A stretch of DNA of 9,442 bases, from IMG/VR virus record IMGVR_UViG_2548876961_000016. One strand, given 5' to 3'. The DNA comes from a virus. Taxonomy: Duplodnaviria > Heunggongvirae > Uroviricota > Caudoviricetes. A program made the position numbers and the translations under genes. The notes under the pieces were generated by a model. It made no database searches. It was not told the DNA's origin and saw only the letters and a program-made list of their open reading frames with translations. Positions 174-9,442 of this stretch are shown here, piece by piece (position 1 is the stretch's first letter; each line of letters begins with the position of its first letter).

Positions 174-230
174 ATTAACTACACCATTAACTACACCGTT
201 TCACGAACAATATCGAACAACCACGAACAA
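174..230. repeat. Tandem 12-bp repeat ATTAACTACACC x2 followed by three CGAACAA repeats at 10-bp phasing
   Basis: ATTAACTACACC at 174-185 and 186-197; CGAACAA at 204-210, 214-220 and 224-230. Helical phasing suggests a protein-binding array. Confidence 0.55.
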
Positions 231-6081: not shown

Positions 6082-6244
6082 CAATTAACCACAGCGCAAC
6101 ACTTCCAGAAAGTTTTGCCAGAAGGCCAGCTAATGCGGATATATCACCATCATTTAATTTATTAGGGTACACCTCAAGAAGTCGGCAAATAATTTCTGTC
6201 TGGTGCGCACGTTCAGCGGCTTCGTGTAATGTAATTTCCTTCAT
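6053..6244 (-). CDS. Hypothetical small protein (63 aa)
   Basis: ATG start overlapping the upstream stop (TAATG), in a same-strand run of tightly packed small ORFs. Sequence MKEITLHEAAERAHQTEIICRLLEVYPNKLNDGDISALAGLLAKLSGSVALWLIDERFKRYEQ has no family I recognise. Confidence 0.45.
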   Translation of the reverse strand: MKEITLHEAAERAHQTEIICRLLEVYPNKLNDGDISALAGLLAKLSGSVALWLIDERFKRYEQ

Positions 6245-6474
6245 TAATGCCCCCCCCCTTTTAATTCATGTACTGCTGCAATAATTACATGTGATAAACC
6301 TGCTTTACCGGAATTACTGATTACTGAATCAATCGCCGCTTGCATATTAACGGCCTTCACGTTCTGCGTGATGCCAACGGTATAGCCGCGCTTGTTAACA
6401 GCACGGGAAAAAACGCGGAAGGTTTTAAGCACGGCACACCCCCTGACGAATACGGGCGACAAATACAGCAACAC
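6244..6474 (-). CDS. Hypothetical small protein; start uncertain (GTG at 6474 or ATG at 6345 giving 33 aa)
   Basis: ORF ends ...HELKGGGH, with GGG GGG GGG encoded by a 9-nt G tract. Its stop overlaps the next gene start (TAATG). The ATG at 6345 has an AAGG 9 nt upstream. Weak support overall. Confidence 0.25.
   Translation of the reverse strand: MLLYLSPVFVRGCAVLKTFRVFSRAVNKRGYTVGITQNVKAVNMQAAIDSVISNSGKAGLSHVIIAAVHELKGGGH
6250..6258. repeat. Homopolymeric tract C9 (G9 on the coding strand) at the junction of two small leftward ORFs
   Basis: Encodes GGG at the end of ORF 6244..6474, immediately before the overlapping stop/start TAATG. Confidence 0.8.
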
Positions 6475-6628
6475 AACCTGACGGGCAACGGCTACGCGCT
6501 TCGCGTTCCGTCCAGGCGGTTACGTGGATGATTTGAGATTCTCCGGCACTCAGGGCCAGAAAACGCCAGATGTATTTATTCAGGTTGTGCGAGTCCCGCC
6601 CTTGCGGGTGTGTGGTATGATTTAACAT
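6425..6628 (-). CDS. Hypothetical small protein (67 aa), possible first gene of the leftward operon
   Basis: Internal ATG within the long 6425..7123 ORF (MLNHTTHPQGRDSHNLNKYIWRFLALSAGESQIIHVTAWTEREARSRCPSGCVAVFVARIRQGVCRA), preceded by GAGGT 4-5 nt upstream. The longer upstream extension crosses the divergent promoter region and is antisense to the plus-strand gene, so it is unlikely to be coding. Confidence 0.3.
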   Translation of the reverse strand: MLNHTTHPQGRDSHNLNKYIWRFLALSAGESQIIHVTAWTEREARSRCPSGCVAVFVARIRQGVCRA

Positions 6629-6705
6629 AGCTACCTCGATACTGTTGCTATCGTTGGTTGTTAGACGCCCTGCATGTGTGCCACCACTGCGGGGCGTTGT
6701 TATTT

Positions 6706-6797
6706 GGTGCATCGCACCATCTGTTTTTAACCTATCAGCAAGTGAATCGCACTTCAAGCCTTTTCTCTGAATTTTTTTTGTGTATACTGAATCGCAC
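6706..6797. promoter_or_regulatory. Divergent control region with three copies of a (T/G)GAATCGCAC-type motif and a -10-like TATACT
   Basis: GGTGCatcGCACC (about 6706-6718), GTGAATCGCAC (about 6742-6752) and TGAATCGCAC (about 6788-6797). TATACT at 6783-6788 lies about 30 nt upstream of the 6819 ATG. The region sits between the leftward operon and the plus-strand small gene. Confidence 0.4.
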
Positions 6798-6818
6798 CAA
6801 CTTAGAGAGGATTCAGTA

Positions 6819-6998
6819 ATGGCAACAGGTTCAACAAATAATAAGTCGCAACAGTTAAATGCCAGATTCCCGCATGATGTTGTTGCAGACTTAGAAAAAA
6901 ATTTAGATGAAGGTGAAAGCAAAGCGCAATTTATAGTTACTGCCGTTAAAGGCGAAATCAAACGCCGCCAGCGCCGCAAGGCCAAAGAGCAGGAATAG
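6819..6998 (+). CDS. Small putative DNA-binding protein (ribbon-helix-helix-like), candidate regulator
   Basis: 59-aa ORF from the internal ATG at 6819 (MATGSTNNKSQQLNARFPHDVVADLEKNLDEGESKAQFIVTAVKGEIKRRQRRKAKEQE), preceded by GAGAGG 8 nt upstream. The GTG at 6780 in the ORF track has no RBS. The strand/helix/helix pattern and basic tail are RHH-like by eye only. Only plus-strand gene in the window. Confidence 0.5.
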   Translation: MATGSTNNKSQQLNARFPHDVVADLEKNLDEGESKAQFIVTAVKGEIKRRQRRKAKEQE

Positions 6999-7086
6999 TC
7001 CACCAGCAAGCCAGCACACTGAGCACATTGCCCACCAGACAGCAAATCGCTATGATGTTCGGGCTTATGTTTAGTGTTTTCCCATT

Positions 7087-7115
7087 GGCGACCGCCACAG
7101 GTCGCCTTTGTTTTA
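7087..7115 (+). terminator. Rho-independent terminator for the small plus-strand gene
   Basis: GGCGACC, loop gccaca, GGTCGCC, followed by TTTGTTTTA. It lies about 90 nt after the stop at 6998 and just before the alpA stop (convergent arrangement). Confidence 0.55.
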
Positions 7116-7132
7116 TGTGTCATATGTTCCCC

Positions 7133-7357
7133 CTACGCTGCCTTACCTGAATTAATACGATCCCGGCTTTTAACCCATTCCATAACCTCGGAAAGCAGCC
7201 AACCTACTGAACGACCACCCAGATTACGGCGTGACGGGAAATTCCCTTTTTTCTCCAGTTCGTAGCGTGTAGTGCGGCACACTCCTGTTAACTTACGGCA
7301 TTCATCCTCACGGATTACGCGATCTGATAGTGATTGAAATTGTGTATTTTGATTCAT
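7133..7357 (-). CDS. alpA: AlpA-family (Phage_AlpA / Vis-like) HTH transcriptional regulator
   Basis: 74-aa ORF. Core RVIREDECRKLTGVCRTTRYELEKKGNFPSRRNLGGRSVGWLLSEVMEWV matches the AlpA-family pattern (l..ev...tGlsrst.y.l...g.FP.p..lg.r.vgW...ev..W). Its position downstream of the integrase matches CP4-57-like elements. Confidence 0.85.
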   Translation of the reverse strand: MNQNTQFQSLSDRVIREDECRKLTGVCRTTRYELEKKGNFPSRRNLGGRSVGWLLSEVMEWVKSRDRINSGKAA

Positions 7358-7392
7358 AAAAAAACGTCCTCGAACGTTGCCGAACGAGGACG
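7358..7392 (-). terminator. Terminator-like or attenuator hairpin directly abutting the alpA start codon
   Basis: Minus-strand RNA reads CGUCCUCG, a 12-nt loop, CGAGGACG, then U7, then AUG of alpA. The 8-bp GC-rich stem plus U7 looks like an intrinsic terminator for readthrough from int and the 257-aa gene, but the only Shine-Dalgarno-like sequence for alpA (GAGGA) lies inside the 3' stem arm. Confidence 0.45.
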
Positions 7393-7419
7393 ATTCTAGG
7401 CGGTAGTAAAACGCCGTTT

Positions 7420-7453
7420 GTGTGATATCACACTACCAGCACGTGATATCACT
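7420..7453. promoter_or_regulatory. Pair of palindromic operator-like sites (GTGTGATATCACAC and GTGATATCAC) about 21 bp centre to centre, upstream of alpA
   Basis: Perfect 14-bp palindrome at about 7420-7433 and perfect 10-bp palindrome at about 7443-7452, sharing the core GTGATATCAC. Two-helical-turn spacing is typical of cooperative dimer binding. The second site overlaps the stop codon of the 257-aa gene. Confidence 0.5.
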
Positions 7454-8222
7454 TTTTACGTTTTTGTTGAGATTCACGCCCCAAATACTTTTGCCATGTC
7501 TGCCAATGTGTTTTTGGAAATTCTATCCCTCTGGATGCAGCTATAGAATCAATTAAATCTGCTATTTTAGGTAATGATTCCGTGTCCAGGTCTACATCAC
7601 CCATTTCTGGAATAAGTTTAATTAAAGAGTAAATAACCTCATTCCTTTTTGACGATGCTTTTGGGCTATCTTCTGTTATCTTCGGGAAGTCTCCCGTATT
7701 TTTTATATTATCTAAATCACTAGCCATCACACACAAATAGTTAACATCAAATTCATAACCACCCTTACAAAAAACATACATGAGATTATCATCACCATAC
7801 TTATTCGTAAGATGAGAACATTTTATATATTGTCTCATGCTAAATTCGACATCAGCAAAAACATATGCCGGAGTATAATAAAACCCTGATAAGCTGCTAA
7901 CATAATAACATTTGATAGAATTCCCTACAGGACCAATAATGGCACTATCTAAAAATTCAGTGTCACCAGTTAAACCAACTGTAAAATTACTTCCAAAAAC
8001 AGCAGATTCATCATTGAAAGGATATTTTATTAATTCTTCCTCATTACAACCATTGATAAAATGACATAATGAAAAATTGAATTTTTTAGCATCAATTTTT
8101 GGTATATATACAGAAATATTAAGAGCACCTATATATGCGTAATGATAAAGATCTTTTATTGCACAGCCTAACTTTTCTGCCGCTTCAGGTAACGGATAAT
8201 AGAGTCTTTTAGGTAATTTCAT
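7449..8222 (-). CDS. Hypothetical protein, AT-rich cargo gene in the int-alpA slot; N-terminal HTH-like segment, remainder unrecognised
   Basis: 257-aa ORF whose start overlaps the integrase stop by ATGA. Residues 5-35 (LYYPLPEAAEKLGCAIKDLYHYAYIGAL) resemble an excisionase/MerR-like helix-turn-helix; the rest is Tyr/Phe/Asn-rich with no motif I recognise. G+C looks much lower (roughly one third, by eye) than flanking genes (about half). Followed by a hairpin plus U-tract (7358-7392). Confidence 0.65.
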   Translation of the reverse strand: MKLPKRLYYPLPEAAEKLGCAIKDLYHYAYIGALNISVYIPKIDAKKFNFSLCHFINGCNEEELIKYPFNDESAVFGSNFTVGLTGDTEFLDSAIIGPVGNSIKCYYVSSLSGFYYTPAYVFADVEFSMRQYIKCSHLTNKYGDDNLMYVFCKGGYEFDVNYLCVMASDLDNIKNTGDFPKITEDSPKASSKRNEVIYSLIKLIPEMGDVDLDTESLPKIADLIDSIAASRGIEFPKTHWQTWQKYLGRESQQKRKK

Positions 8223-9442
8223 TTGGCCACCTTCAGCATAACAATATTTTCATGATTTCCAGCCAGCACATCGAGGCGCTCAACCCATAGATTAAGAGCG
8301 TCACGTTTTGCATCAAGATAACGGGAGTGATTATAGACTCGTTGCATTCCTGGCAACTGGTGCGCGGTAAGCTGCTCCACAACATGCGGTTCCACGCCTA
8401 AATCGTTCAGCATCGTTGTAAACGTGTGCCGGATGTCGTGCAACGTCCAGGGGGCTTGATTAATGCGTCTGTGTGCCGTTCTTCCGTACTCTGATACGGA
8501 TGATTGCCCTTTCAGTTCTCCGAGCAATAAGCCCGTGTGCCTGTTCTGCTCCACCAGCTTCATGACAAACGGCAAGATCGCTTCCGGTATTGGCCTGAAT
8601 ATTGCTACCTTCGTTTTGCTGTGTTCTTTCGGCACGGTCCAGAGCATTTCTTTAAAATCCCATTCCTGGACCTCAGAGCGTCTTAGCTCAGTGGTACGAC
8701 ATCCGAAGACAATCAGGAGGCGAATCAGGGCGCTGTAGTACGGTGGGTAAATTTTTTCATCAAGGGCGCGTAGTAATTCCCCAAGCTCCTTGTTTGTTAG
8801 TACGCGCTCGCTTATTTCTGCTTTTTTCCCAACATCACCGACAACCATATCATCAAGAACGTTGCTGATTGCGTATCGTCGTTTTCGGCAGTACTTAAGC
8901 GCCTGTTTGCATACCTGTAGCAAAAATCCGGCTGATACCGGATTACGCTTAGCAAGCTGGTCAAAACAGGCCAGCCAGTGGCGTAGCTCGCATTTTTCCA
9001 GTGGCATAGCTCCAATCTGGCTAATTATGTGTTTATTGATCCGGCTTTTCAGTGATTCGTAGTCAGTGCGCTTTTCCTTTGCGTACGATTCAAGCCAGTA
9101 AGTGAGCGCTTCCTTAACCGTCACGGGGGCTAACGCGTCCTGTACAGCATGATTAAGTTCATAGCGCGGATTTTTCCCCTCAGCCAGCCATGCGCGACAT
9201 TGCGACGCTTTTTCCCTGGCTGCTTTCAGGCTCAAATCTGGATAATTTCCCAGCCTCAGACGTTCAGGTGATATCTGCCTACCAGTTCCGGACCTGTAAG
9301 TGAAATACCAGGTTAACAGGCCATTGGTTGAATGCCTTACGCTAAGGTTGCCACCATCATTAAAAAAGGTGCTTTTTGTGGTTGGTGATCCGCTTAATTT
9401 TCGTAAAAGAGTGTCGCTAAGTCTATGAATTGCCCTGCTCAT
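8219..9442 (-). CDS. int: Tyrosine site-specific integrase (P4/CP4-57-type phage integrase family)
   Basis: 407-aa ORF. C-terminal catalytic region has the His-x-x-Arg box (LHDIRHTFTTML) and a tyrosine-containing tail (RVYNHSRYLDAKRDALNLW); an upstream Arg box is present (FGCRTTELRRSEV). The ATG is on the last bases of the window, so promoter, att site and any longer N-terminus are not visible. The stop overlaps the next gene start (ATGA). Confidence 0.9.
   Translation of the reverse strand: MSRAIHRLSDTLLRKLSGSPTTKSTFFNDGGNLSVRHSTNGLLTWYFTYRSGTGRQISPERLRLGNYPDLSLKAAREKASQCRAWLAEGKNPRYELNHAVQDALAPVTVKEALTYWLESYAKEKRTDYESLKSRINKHIISQIGAMPLEKCELRHWLACFDQLAKRNPVSAGFLLQVCKQALKYCRKRRYAISNVLDDMVVGDVGKKAEISERVLTNKELGELLRALDEKIYPPYYSALIRLLIVFGCRTTELRRSEVQEWDFKEMLWTVPKEHSKTKVAIFRPIPEAILPFVMKLVEQNRHTGLLLGELKGQSSVSEYGRTAHRRINQAPWTLHDIRHTFTTMLNDLGVEPHVVEQLTAHQLPGMQRVYNHSRYLDAKRDALNLWVERLDVLAGNHENIVMLKVAK

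Follow-up and report, generated by a model that had tools for sequence, protein, structure and literature searches.

Conserved twin palindromes and a Shine-Dalgarno-containing hairpin look like a control region upstream of alpA in a Gram-negative PICI

How a helper phage switches on alpA in Gram-negative PICIs and PICMIs has been stated as an open question (PMC6092414; PMC10803314), and the papers that we found give no description of the cis elements of this switch. AlpA is the master activator and an excisionase-type regulator of Gram-negative PICIs; it is both required and sufficient for induction, acts positively on its own promoter, and is turned on by the helper phage (PMC6092414, PMC11773190). 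Here, we examined the ~95 bp upstream of alpA in the window, by which we mean the whole 9,442-nucleotide stretch of IMG/VR record IMGVR_UViG_2548876961_000016. The palindromes and hairpin in this interval have the look of a control region by which the island stays silent before the arrival of a helper phage.

The host element is a Gram-negative PICI, which is known here from its gene content and insertion site. Pfam searches identified int, alpA, a D5_N/DUF5906 primase, terS, and a capsid gene in the window. In an identical E. coli locus, where int carries the same annotation, the insert measures 9.5 kb, lies between clpS and cspD, and has an 11-bp repeat at both ends. The gene order is int, a 257-aa gene overlapping int, and then alpA on the same strand, ~90 bp downstream of the pair:

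8219–9442, minus strand: int, a tyrosine integrase of 407 aa with an arm-binding N-terminal domain (Pfam Phage_integrase and Arm-DNA-bind_3)
7449–8222, minus strand: int-overlapping 257-aa gene, “iolg-like,” family A
7133–7357, minus strand: alpA, 74 aa, PF05930 (Phage_AlpA), E = 3e-16

The alpA start is the ATG at 7357, which encodes the sole Met ahead of residue 59, so there is no other start codon. A scan of genome contigs with the single AlpA protein returned only four distant loci and was uninformative.

Two perfect palindromes ~21 bp apart and a hairpin had been predicted upstream of alpA, and the coordinates and sequences of all these elements are as originally described. Exact copies of GTGATATCAC occupy 7422–7431 and 7443–7452, 21 bp from start to start:

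7443–7452, no strand assigned: distal operator-like palindrome GTGATATCAC, overlapping the TGA stop (7451–7449) of the 257-aa ORF
7420–7433, no strand assigned: proximal operator-like palindrome GTGTGATATCACAC, with its core at 7422–7431

The proximal copy extends into a 14-bp palindrome, GTGTGATATCAC AC (7420–7433), and in relatives the distal copy shows the stronger conservation. GTGATATCAC occurs nowhere else in the window, nor elsewhere in 18.5 kb of the identical E. coli locus; with up to one mismatch allowed, 0.38 copies would be expected by chance. For the exact TGATATCA core, 0.20 copies were expected, and two copies were reached in only 1 of 200 shuffles.

The reading of these sites as an operator pair for a dimeric regulator fared well in the comparison with relatives. 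The palindromes are 10–14 bp long, lie on the same helix face at 20–22 bp from center to center, and keep their dyad symmetry, their ~21-bp phasing, and their distance to the hairpin, while spacer and flanks vary (the spacers are unrelated in L070, L111, L112, L115, L117, and L127); binding itself is putative. Their centers lie at −33.5 (proximal) and −54.5 (distal) from the base of the hairpin stem. This geometry is common to islands whose sites read GTGAnnTCAC and to those with the unrelated GGAAnTTCC, and the proximal palindrome holds a fixed position relative to the hairpin base in both families, A and B. Because unrelated site types share the same geometry, we argue that both types take their position from a promoter at the hairpin. 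As for known regulators, half-sites are separated by N6 for CRP, N4 for LacI-family proteins, and N5 for lambda CI, and we rejected all three for TGTGATATCACA because its N2 spacing does not fit. A proposed response to a helper-phage factor found no backing: nothing links the site to one, and a search of viral contigs for paired GTGATATCAC, made as a check for helper-phage operators, returned no enterobacterial phage as a helper candidate. Besides PICI-like contigs, the matches were TGATATCA arrays in gut phages of 39% GC, further arrays in phages of high GC, and tandem repeats within coding sequence, all unrelated.

Between the palindromes and alpA lies the 8-bp GC-rich hairpin, followed by U7 that ends at the alpA AUG. 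Its only Shine-Dalgarno (SD)-like element, GAGGA (7371–7367), sits within the 3′ arm, as predicted, 9 nt from the ATG:

7385–7392, minus strand: hairpin 5′ arm CGTCCTCG, anti-Shine-Dalgarno (folding and covariation)
7373–7384, minus strand: hairpin loop, 12 nt
7365–7372, minus strand: hairpin 3′ arm CGAGGACG, holding GAGGA (sequence and folding)
7358–7364, minus strand: U7 tract between hairpin and AUG (sequence)

RNA folding supported the predicted structure, giving −17.6 to −19 kcal/mol for the hairpin (z = −4.3 to −4.8; 0 of 200 shuffles as stable) and z = −5.0 for the whole 121-nt leader. By contrast, an RNA beginning at 7386 folds at −4.7 kcal/mol, no more stably than shuffles. An Rfam search of the window with all families at E up to 1 gave no leader match, only a chance SNORA5 match elsewhere in the window.

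The hairpin is kept with compensatory changes in ~40 diverged PICI leaders, with a 7–8 bp stem, a 12-nt loop, and 6–9 nt (usually 8) to the AUG throughout. Because a 7-bp stem was required for a leader to be kept in the set, the 100% pairing of the core stem is partly circular. Among 27 distinct leaders, five of the seven core pairs show two-sided changes, and the covariation score of 0.381 was reached by none of 500 shuffles (0.225 in shuffles); slid controls paired in just 36%–54% of cells. Arm pairs as different as CGTCCTCG/CGAGGACG, GCTCTCG/CGAGAGC, GCTCCTG/CAGGAGC, CCACCTG/CAGGTGG, and ACCCTTG/CAAGGGT occur among these leaders, with the 3′ arm purine-rich and SD-like in all 39 variants. 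Pairing also continues into the flanks, where the first four pairs next to the core stem are formed in 70%–96% of cases (e.g., TTAAAT/ATTTAA in L115 and ATAT/ATAT in L112). With GAGGA in the 3′ arm and covariation holding the anti-SD 5′ arm to it, sequence comparison thus supports selection for the hairpin as a base-paired structure containing the SD sequence. Moreover, E. coli variants have their mosaic breakpoint at the 5′ edge of the hairpin, indicating that the hairpin travels with alpA.

Whether this hairpin is also a terminator has a more divided answer. The 8-bp stem with six GC pairs (−17.6 kcal/mol) and U7 has the stem and tail of an intrinsic terminator, but the 12-nt loop, with a predicted 2-bp inner stem, exceeds the typical 3–8 nt, and a simple terminator scan left the hairpin unlisted because its loop limit was 8. 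Close relatives have 5 to 8 T in the tract, and at least 6 T occur within 8 nt past the stem in 26 of the 39 variants; four variants have three or fewer, and the hairpin is retained where the U-tract is lost. Because about one third of leaders lack the U-tract, hiding of the SD appears to be universal and termination lineage-specific. Accordingly, the proposal that the hairpin blocks readthrough holds in part: its position is right for transcripts from int and the “cargo” gene, but its terminator character is not conserved. The further proposal that alpA stays silent until the structure is opened or bypassed needs a similar adjustment. Complementarity between either arm and the 80 nt upstream averaged 3.9 nt vs 4.0 nt in shuffles, and the hairpin was present in the minimum-energy fold of all 41 extended leaders, leaving no conserved, mutually exclusive alternative structure of the kind found in attenuators and riboswitches. 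Since there is no alternative pairing upstream, opening by RNA refolding is unlikely, and bypass by a promoter whose transcripts begin at or within the hairpin is at least as likely a route.

The loop carries a feature overlooked in the original prediction, namely two CGTTCG boxes of a motif that is repeated in the att arms:

7371–7386, minus strand: two CGTTCG boxes, 10 bp apart (7386–7381 and 7376–7371), putative AlpA (excisionase) or Int-arm sites
204–229, minus strand: three TGTTCG boxes of the loop-box motif in 10-bp phase, in the int-distal att arm
174–197, minus strand: the 12-mer GGTGTAGTTAAT twice, in the att arm, likely Int arm-type sites

The CGTTCG pair reaches from the last bases of the 5′ arm across the loop into the first bases of the 3′ arm. 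In the window, YGTTCG-N4-YGTTCG is confined to the hairpin and att arm (three matches vs 0.19 expected), and the larger locus has seven matches vs 1.7 expected, with CGTTCG twice in the leader, TGTTCG in sets of three and two upstream of int, and TGTTCG three times in the distal arm. A second GGTGTAGTTAAT pair lies upstream of int, beyond the window, and this motif differs between int lineages. GAAC or GTTC boxes were found in 41 of 42 hairpins of relatives, GTTC-sense relative to alpA in eight variants and GAAC-sense in 30. The fifth base of the box tends to agree within an island, being G in those of E. coli and Salmonella and A in those of Klebsiella, with imperfect covariation in L127, L209, and L210. 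The AlpA recognition helix CRTTRY is nearly invariant, and the GTTC core of the box is invariant. Because the motif is also arrayed in both att arms, the loop boxes are probably an AlpA (excisionase) site, judging from these sequence patterns. Papers on CP4So and GIsul2, consulted for AlpA-family DNA motifs, report no sites.

A candidate promoter element abuts the hairpin on its upstream side:

7393–7398, minus strand: TAGAAT, a −10-like hexamer abutting the 5′ arm (read from sequence)

Relatives have an equivalent hexamer, nAnAAT, and the operators stand at a fixed distance from the hairpin. However, a sigma-70 PWM scan of the leaders found no consistently placed promoter; every candidate was weak (<10 bits), and TAGAAT was not picked. 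The hexamer can also be explained otherwise. As an A-rich flank, it can pair with the U-tract, and in 31 of 39 relatives the pre-stem AAT and the base that opens the stem together contain an ATG; because flank pairing and this ATG can explain the AAT, it is not clean evidence for a −10 element. In the same 31 relatives, the stem-base AUG is in frame, 36 nt upstream of the alpA AUG, and in three relatives a stop stands just ahead of it in a coupling-like layout. The leader in the window reads AATCG at this point and has no upstream AUG. Variants without palindromes carry TTGCAC or TTGCTT 16–17 bp upstream of the stem-abutting hexamer, and in some relatives the half-site GTGATA is a possible −35 that would shift the start to a few nt before the stem and so put the hairpin in the mRNA. 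We also rejected leaderless initiation and a promoter in the stretch from the boxes to the ATG, for which the sequence offers no plausible elements.

Our preferred reading, to which we give slightly less than an even chance, is that the hairpin blocks readthrough from a constitutive int operon and that an operator-controlled alpA promoter starts at or inside the hairpin. The transcription start, the binding proteins, and the sign of regulation are what we infer from the elements above, their conservation, covariation and geometry, and their associations. The 95-bp interval would then be the alpA control region, made up of an insulator hairpin, its own promoter, and the loop boxes. RNA polymerase from the int/257-aa-gene operon, taken as constitutive as in related satellites, would transcribe the whole stem-loop, which together with U7 should end most int-operon transcripts in this island. 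In any RNA that escaped, the alpA SD and spacer would be locked in a helix of −18 to −19 kcal/mol, and we propose that readthrough could therefore not make AlpA. The alpA promoter itself would be weak, lack a −35, and lie in the 28–29 bp between the proximal palindrome and the stem. Its transcripts would begin at or inside the 5′ arm, around 7386–7385, and without the anti-SD arm would be neither terminated nor translationally blocked. The palindromes would then be centered near −40 and −61, where a bound dimeric regulator could set promoter activity; the 257-aa protein, whose gene has its stop within the distal palindrome, is the most economical candidate for this regulator. The CGTTCG boxes in the loop-coding DNA would probably be bound by AlpA, feeding back on its own promoter. 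This last step meets a difficulty, in that boxes at +1 to +17 would be expected to repress, yet AlpA is reported to activate its own promoter. Self-activation was measured in EcCICFT073 and EcCIMP1, islands with a different leader; that of EcCICFT073, the one compared here, has boxes ~300 bp upstream and no hairpin.

The original prediction placed the promoter upstream of the hairpin, in or before the palindromes, which would put the hairpin in every alpA transcript as a leader attenuator and translational lock. A trans-acting factor would then have to suppress termination and expose the SD sequence. This role could fall to a helper-phage protein, an antiterminator, an sRNA, or an RNase, or else to a ribosome that begins translation at the upstream AUG of many relatives. 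We consider this unlikely, though it is the rival we take most seriously. The AAAU/AUUU flank pairs that lengthen the helix in most variants suggest that the 5′ flank is co-transcribed with the stem, and taking GTGATA (in the proximal palindrome) or TTTCCA (family B) as a −35 would have transcription begin between about −4 and +3, counted from the stem. In addition, L184, L185, L197, and L205 carry a lambda-PR-like CTCACCGTCGCGGTGATAAT 18 nt upstream of the stem, with a −10 that would put the start before the hairpin, and the frequent in-frame stem-base AUG also speaks for this reading. However, that AUG is absent from the leader in the window, the U-tract is dispensable in a third of relatives, and neither a conserved alternative RNA structure nor an Rfam family match was found. 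A structure of −18 kcal/mol over the SD in every transcript would also leave a quick-switch activator almost untranslatable, and the 74-aa PF05930 AlpA is, judged by description, not a homolog of the Q-like P. aeruginosa AlpA.

Two further readings seem to us improbable. The hairpin could be an ordinary intrinsic terminator of the int/257-aa operon that overlaps the alpA ribosome-binding site by chance and has no regulatory role, with the palindromes serving as an unrelated operator or as the autoregulatory site of the upstream gene. Its GC-rich stem with U7 and an A-rich 5′ flank, the T-rich tail in 26 of 39 relatives, and the frequent coincidence of module boundaries with terminators in mosaic elements all fit this. 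Against it, hairpin, 12-nt loop, and AUG distance are kept without a U-tract in L111, L112, L115, L199, L200, and L207; the 3′ arm is constrained to be SD-like while the 5′ arm covaries with it; and a plain terminator has no need of the conserved loop boxes. Those boxes are instead the starting point for a DNA-level reading, in which the inverted repeat around two GTTC boxes is a platform for AlpA and/or Int arm binding, possibly cruciform-prone and serving to control excision or to repress, with the RNA hairpin as a by-product. Such a platform is favored by the recurrence of the boxes in the att arms, where the fifth base agrees in islands of E. coli, Salmonella, and Klebsiella, by their two orientations relative to alpA, which suggest orientation-independent DNA recognition, and by the phased GAAC boxes that hairpin-less leader classes (EcCICFT073 and the MREINED class) keep upstream of alpA. 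Yet the arms vary freely while complementarity and an SD-like 3′ arm are kept, which fits RNA pairing better than protein recognition; the fixed distance of 6–9 nt (usually 8) before the AUG is characteristic of translation-initiation regions; and box covariation is imperfect in L127, L209, and L210.

The gene upstream of alpA bears on what might act at the palindromes. The 257-aa protein has a conserved N-terminal winged-helix domain of excisionase/MerR type and a conserved helical C-terminus with the last residues ..WQKYLGR, and the part between them is variable and beta-rich. Its gene overlaps int as the Vibrio PICMI gene iolg does. The type of palindrome tracks the family of this “cargo” gene, an observation that the original prediction overlooked. 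GTGAnnTCAC was present in 19 of 19 family A islands and two GGAAnTTCC sites in five of five family B islands, whereas islands with DUF6387 and other upstream genes had operator palindromes in 0 of 13 cases. In two hybrids, operator type goes with the type of the C-terminal domain. This association could reflect physical linkage alone. It also allows a more speculative proposal, which we think rather doubtful, that the 257-aa protein and its family B counterparts are the missing helper-phage sensor of Gram-negative PICIs. The conserved ends would hold the protein on the twin palindromes at the alpA promoter, and the hypervariable middle domain would recognize a helper-phage protein and so turn on alpA, either by activation from about −40/−61 or by relief of repression. 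The hairpin would leave only the alpA promoter, and not readthrough from the sensor operon, able to make AlpA. If true, the 257-aa protein would be a Gram-negative functional analog of SaPI Stl, and the need for iolg in helper-induced excision of Vibrio PICMI would be explained.

What is new here is a conserved and mutable set of sites, consisting of a family-specific operator pair, an SD-sequestering and often terminating hairpin, and excisionase-type loop boxes. Together with the 257-aa protein as a specific candidate sensor for helper phage, they make the question of alpA induction accessible to standard experiments. The hairpin would also explain how constitutive expression of int and its neighbor can coexist with a silent alpA, and information on the leader could be useful for engineering PICI-based delivery or diagnostic vehicles.

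Among known systems, the Vibrio PICMI has an int-iolg-alpA module, in which int and iolg are constitutive, alpA is phage-induced, and iolg is essential for helper-induced excision (PMC10803314). The authors of that work suggest a role for IOLG in the excision complex rather than in the regulation of alpA, and describe no cis elements (PMC10803314); our comparison of the 257-aa gene with iolg rests on the int overlap. EcCICFT073 and EcCIMP1 share the element type, AlpA as master activator, positive autoregulation, and helper-phage induction (PMC6092414, PMC11773190), and overexpression of EcCICFT073 alpA leads to uncontrolled island replication and impairs host growth and viability. However, EcCICFT073 has no int-overlapping gene and no hairpin (fold z about 0), a GTG start, and GAAC boxes ~300 bp upstream. 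Because its leader differs in these ways, experimental results from that island are not simply transferable to the hairpin leader class.

The AlpA of P. aeruginosa is a Q-like processive antiterminator described as having eight helices, with a C-terminal helix-turn-helix at residues ~128–142 and an N-terminal ring in the RNA exit channel (PMC7969949, PMC9371919); its mode of action involves a binding element between −35 and −10 and a sigma-dependent pause. A terminator between promoter and regulated genes is a likeness, as is the name, but the island AlpA is a 74-aa PF05930 excisionase-type winged helix, and on comparison by description we rejected Q-like antitermination for it. As the proteins share only the name, there is no basis for transferring the mechanism. 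In P4, the late promoter PLL lies upstream of vis, an alpA homolog that comes first in the helper-activated transcript, and the excisionase-type proteins P2 Cox and Vis act on PLL via phased direct repeats. The likeness is that an AlpA-like gene heads a helper-activated transcript, whereas the P4 sites are TGT-N12-ACA (Ogr/Delta) and cox boxes, not GTGATATCAC palindromes. P4 immunity works further downstream, through termination mediated by CI RNA (PMC10111431).

SaPI Stl, the master repressor countered by helper-phage antirepressors, is an island DNA-binding protein with a variable phage-sensing part, encoded beside int, that controls the start of the satellite cycle (PMC6092414), and the 257-aa protein would resemble it in these respects. 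In the 257-aa family, conserved DNA-binding-type end(s) flank a hypervariable middle; there is no homology to Stl, the gene is co-directional with alpA rather than divergent, and palindrome binding is putative. A further parallel is fold-back inhibition of the transposase mRNAs of IS10 and IS50, reportedly described by Davis, Simons & Kleckner (1985) and by Krebs & Reznikoff (1986). In those elements, an inverted repeat hides the ribosome-binding site only in transcripts from outside; the element's own promoter starts within the repeat, leaving the native mRNA translatable, and the purpose is to guard a dangerous gene against readthrough. The PICI leader likewise has its ribosome-binding site in an inverted-repeat hairpin. 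It differs in that its internal start is a proposed one, and in that the hairpin is also a terminator in many members, has boxes for a recombination protein in its loop, and would guard not a transposase but the activator and excisionase of a phage satellite.

The 9.4-kb window is nearly a whole Gram-negative phage-inducible chromosomal island (PICI), inserted between E. coli clpS and cspD, and its alpA region is 100% identical to that of strain 2014C-3061 and many O157:H7 genomes. Its gene order is as follows:

9442-8219, minus strand: int, first in gene order
8222-7449, minus strand: 257-aa ORF, whose ATG overlaps the int stop codon as ATGA
7357-7133, minus strand: alpA (PF05930)
beyond alpA, minus strand: DUF4222 gene, D5-type primase gene, terS, and capsid gene

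In such islands excision requires AlpA, which acts as the master activator as well; it activates its own promoter, and helper phages switch it on (PMC6092414; PMC11773190; PMC10803314). We found no published description of cis elements upstream of alpA.

Other features of the locus were also recorded. A YlcI/YnfO-family gene (59-72 aa; window 6780-7106, plus strand), with its own plus-strand terminator at 7087-7106, points toward alpA and away from the Icd-like/primase operon. Most PICIs among those whose annotation was inspected have it at the same place, and an alpA transcript reaches the replication genes only via antisense passage through it; this gene may be part of the switch. A 232-aa minus-strand ORF from mechanical listing (window 6425-7123) has no Pfam match or RefSeq annotation; RefSeq instead has the YlcI/YnfO gene, within the same span but on the plus strand, and an Icd-like gene at the ORF's downstream end, and the ORF is probably not a gene. 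Compared with the larger 18.5-kb E. coli locus (L001, NZ_CP027548), whose island is bounded by the 11-bp repeat ATGATAGTTAT, the window shows small indels at ~6244-6998, outside the alpA region (coordinate offset 1901 to 1894), and in the adjoining segment past window 6244 RefSeq annotates a pseudogene as truncated.

The alpA leader folds into the hairpin that had been predicted: CGTCCTCG, a 12-nt loop, CGAGGACG, and then U7 ending at the alpA ATG, with GAGGA inside the 3′ arm. Its folding energy of -17.6 to -19 kcal/mol (z ~ -4.3 to -4.8) is not a chance value. To place it in its family, we gathered alpA loci from E. coli genomes, from viral and prophage contigs by AlpA homology, and from homologues of the 257-aa protein, the last set being independent of the leader. 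About 40 distinct leaders share a common architecture, with a stem of 7-8 bp, a 12-nt loop, and 6-9 nt (mostly 8) to the ATG. The stems are divergent yet complementary (GCTCTCG/CGAGAGC, GCCCTCG/CGAGGGC, GCTCCTG/CAGGAGC, CCACCTG/CAGGTGG, ACCCTTG/CAAGGGT). In a gapless alignment of 27 distinct sequences, five of the seven core pairs changed on both sides, and the covariation score was 0.381 vs. 0.225 in shuffles, none of 500 scoring as high. Leaders were kept only where a 7-bp stem was found, which makes the figure of 100% pairing partly circular, but not the compensatory changes; slid controls paired in just 36-54% of cells. The helix is usually extended by 3-4 flanking A-U pairs, reaching to within 2 nt of the AUG in one locus (L115). 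Leaders of the “MREINED” N-terminus class and of EcCICFT073 gave no significant structure on folding.

The original prediction combined a terminator with burial of the Shine-Dalgarno sequence, and these two parts fared differently. The 3′ arm was purine-rich and Shine-Dalgarno-like in every leader with a hairpin, while 26 of 39 variants had six or more T among the 8 nt past the stem and four had 3 or fewer (e.g., ACCTATCA, GTTAACCA). What the whole family shares is therefore a sequestered ribosome-binding site, and termination is an addition in this island and most, not all, relatives. A GGCG-N9-CGCC inverted repeat (window 7399-7416, minus strand), between the proximal palindrome described below and TAGAAT, is weakened in close relatives (CGTC), missing from distant ones, and probably due to chance.

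Upstream of the hairpin, the palindrome GTGATATCAC occurs at 7422-7431 and 7443-7452 and nowhere else in 18.5 kb (0.2-0.4 copies expected), bearing out the predicted twin palindromes. The proximal copy is a 14-bp palindrome, and the distal copy, better conserved across islands, includes the stop codon of the 257-aa ORF. The reading as an operator pair also held up: in diverged islands, the dyad symmetry and 20-22-bp spacing were kept around unrelated spacers, with the consensus GTGA-N2-TCAC and variants including GTGAATTCAC, GTGAAATCAC/GTGATTTCAC, and GCGATATCGC. Moreover, islands with a counterpart upstream gene (family B, C-terminus ..WLKDxDID; L176, L181, L182, L195, L198, L201, L207) carry two unrelated TGGAAnnTTCCA-type palindromes at the same positions, centered -33.5 and -54.5 from the hairpin base as in family A, the family of the 257-aa ORF. 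GTGAnnTCAC was found in 19/19 family A islands and two GGAAnTTCC sites in 5/5 family B islands; two hybrids, A-type at the N-terminus and B-type at the C-terminus, have sites of the B type, and neither type occurs in the 13 islands with DUF6387 or other upstream genes. The palindromes are a putative operator pair tied to the upstream gene, an association that could be plain linkage because they touch that gene's 3′ end. In four DUF6387-bearing loci (L184, L185, L197, L205), the hairpin is preceded, at a distance of 18 nt, by a lambda-operator/PR-like CTCACCGTCGCGGTGATAAT. Palindromes of the sequence TGATATCA or GTGATATCAC also form arrays in non-coding stretches of unrelated phage contigs (L060, L063-L069, etc., at 39% GC; L093, L095, L108, L119 at 65-71% GC) and may belong to an operator or iteron type that is widespread and recognized by some common DNA-binding domain.

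The loop region of the hairpin reads CGTTCG-GCAA-CGTTCG, two boxes that the original prediction did not mention; in most relatives the boxes are reversed (CGAAC-N5-CGAAC). Arrays of 10-bp-phased YGTTCG boxes also occupy both att arms, which hold a doubled 12-mer as well:

window 204-229, minus strand: three TGTTCG boxes, distal att arm
window 174-197, minus strand: 12-mer GGTGTAGTTAAT, doubled, att arm
int side, upstream of int, in the full locus (L001): YGTTCG arrays of three and two boxes, the two near the core

Box-pair matches numbered 3 in the window (0.19 expected) and 7 in the 18.5-kb locus (1.7 expected), and none of 200 shuffles reached either. The fifth box base tends to match between arms and hairpin of one island (GTTCG in E. 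coli/Salmonella, GTTCA in Klebsiella), with mixtures in Providencia and two metagenomic loci. Because the 12-mer motif changes with int lineage while hardly any variation is seen among the compared islands in either the GTTC core or the AlpA recognition helix (CRTTRY), we infer that the 12-mer is a putative Int arm site and the GTTC boxes putative sites for AlpA as excisionase. EcCICFT073 (L212), an island in which AlpA autoactivation was measured (PMC6092414), carries a 10-bp-phased array of five or six GAACAAC boxes directly behind int and ~300 bp upstream of alpA, consistent with AlpA binding such boxes. The att arms (window 174-229; L001 11357-11506) hold two phased direct-repeat kinds in the same order either side of the core. 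EcCICFT073 (L212 2690-2750, 1270-1415) is without the int-overlapping gene and the hairpin, and upstream of its int it shares the GGTGTAGTTAAT doublet and has GTT(T/C)CA boxes.

That unrelated operator sequences keep the same distances to the hairpin implies that a promoter, relative to which both are positioned, would lie in the 28-29 bp between operators and hairpin. No -35 consensus was present between the proximal palindrome and the stem; a -10-like hexamer adjoins the stem, reading TAGAAT in this island and nAnAAT in its relatives, and in variants that lack the palindromes TTGCAC or TTGCTT lies 16-17 bp away from the hexamer. With TAGAAT as the -10, transcription would start at ~7386-7385, the end of the 5′ arm, and the palindromes would lie near -40 and -61. 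RNA with this 5′ end is unable to make the hairpin; its fold, at -4.7 kcal/mol, does not outdo shuffled sequences. Transcripts of the int operon would carry the whole hairpin and be terminated at U7 or left untranslatable. We tentatively favor this insulating hairpin with an alpA promoter starting at the end of the 5′ arm, at somewhat less than even confidence. A PWM scan gave only weak promoter candidates at inconsistent positions, and the “AAT” before the stem has other explanations, namely flank pairing or the ATG formed with the first stem base in 31/39 relatives. In addition, boxes at +1 to +17 would predict repression, whereas AlpA autoactivation is known from islands with other leaders. 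The stem-base ATG (e.g., L070, L117, L125, L141, L196; absent in the window) lies in frame with the alpA ATG, 36 nt before it, with a stop 1-2 codons ahead of the alpA ATG in L111, L199, and L207; it could open a short ORF, translation of which would melt the hairpin, or be a motif by-product.

That every alpA mRNA holds the hairpin, to be overcome in trans, as originally proposed, is doubtful. Opening of the structure through cis-encoded RNA refolding is unlikely, because neither arm has a complement above chance level in the 80 nt upstream, minimum-energy folding retained the hairpin in each of the 41 extended leaders, and no Rfam family matches. The classical attenuator was rejected as a class for this element. 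A plain terminator, which the U-tract of most variants would suit and the U-poor ones would not, is improbable, and we give equally little credence to a purely DNA-level platform, which the boxes would suit and the compensatory stem changes would not.

In the 257-aa protein, for which no family was detected, the middle is beta-rich and hypervariable, and the C-terminus is helical and conserved. Its gene overlaps int by ATGA exactly as “iolg” does in Vibrio PICMI, where iolg is essential for helper-induced excision (PMC10803314). The doubled GGTGTAGTTAAT resembles a doubled motif reported for HE-PICIs (PMC10111431). The larger Q-like “AlpA” of P. aeruginosa is a different protein and was rejected as a relative. 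It is conceivable, if rather unlikely, that the int-overlapping protein is a helper-phage sensor acting on the palindromes; it would then be the functional counterpart of SaPI Stl. A hairpin formed in read-through transcripts only would follow the same logic as fold-back inhibition in IS10 and IS50. Overall, the element is best described as an assembly of known devices (insulating terminator with Shine-Dalgarno trap, operator pair, and excisionase boxes) in a new variant, sited at the decision point of a phage satellite.
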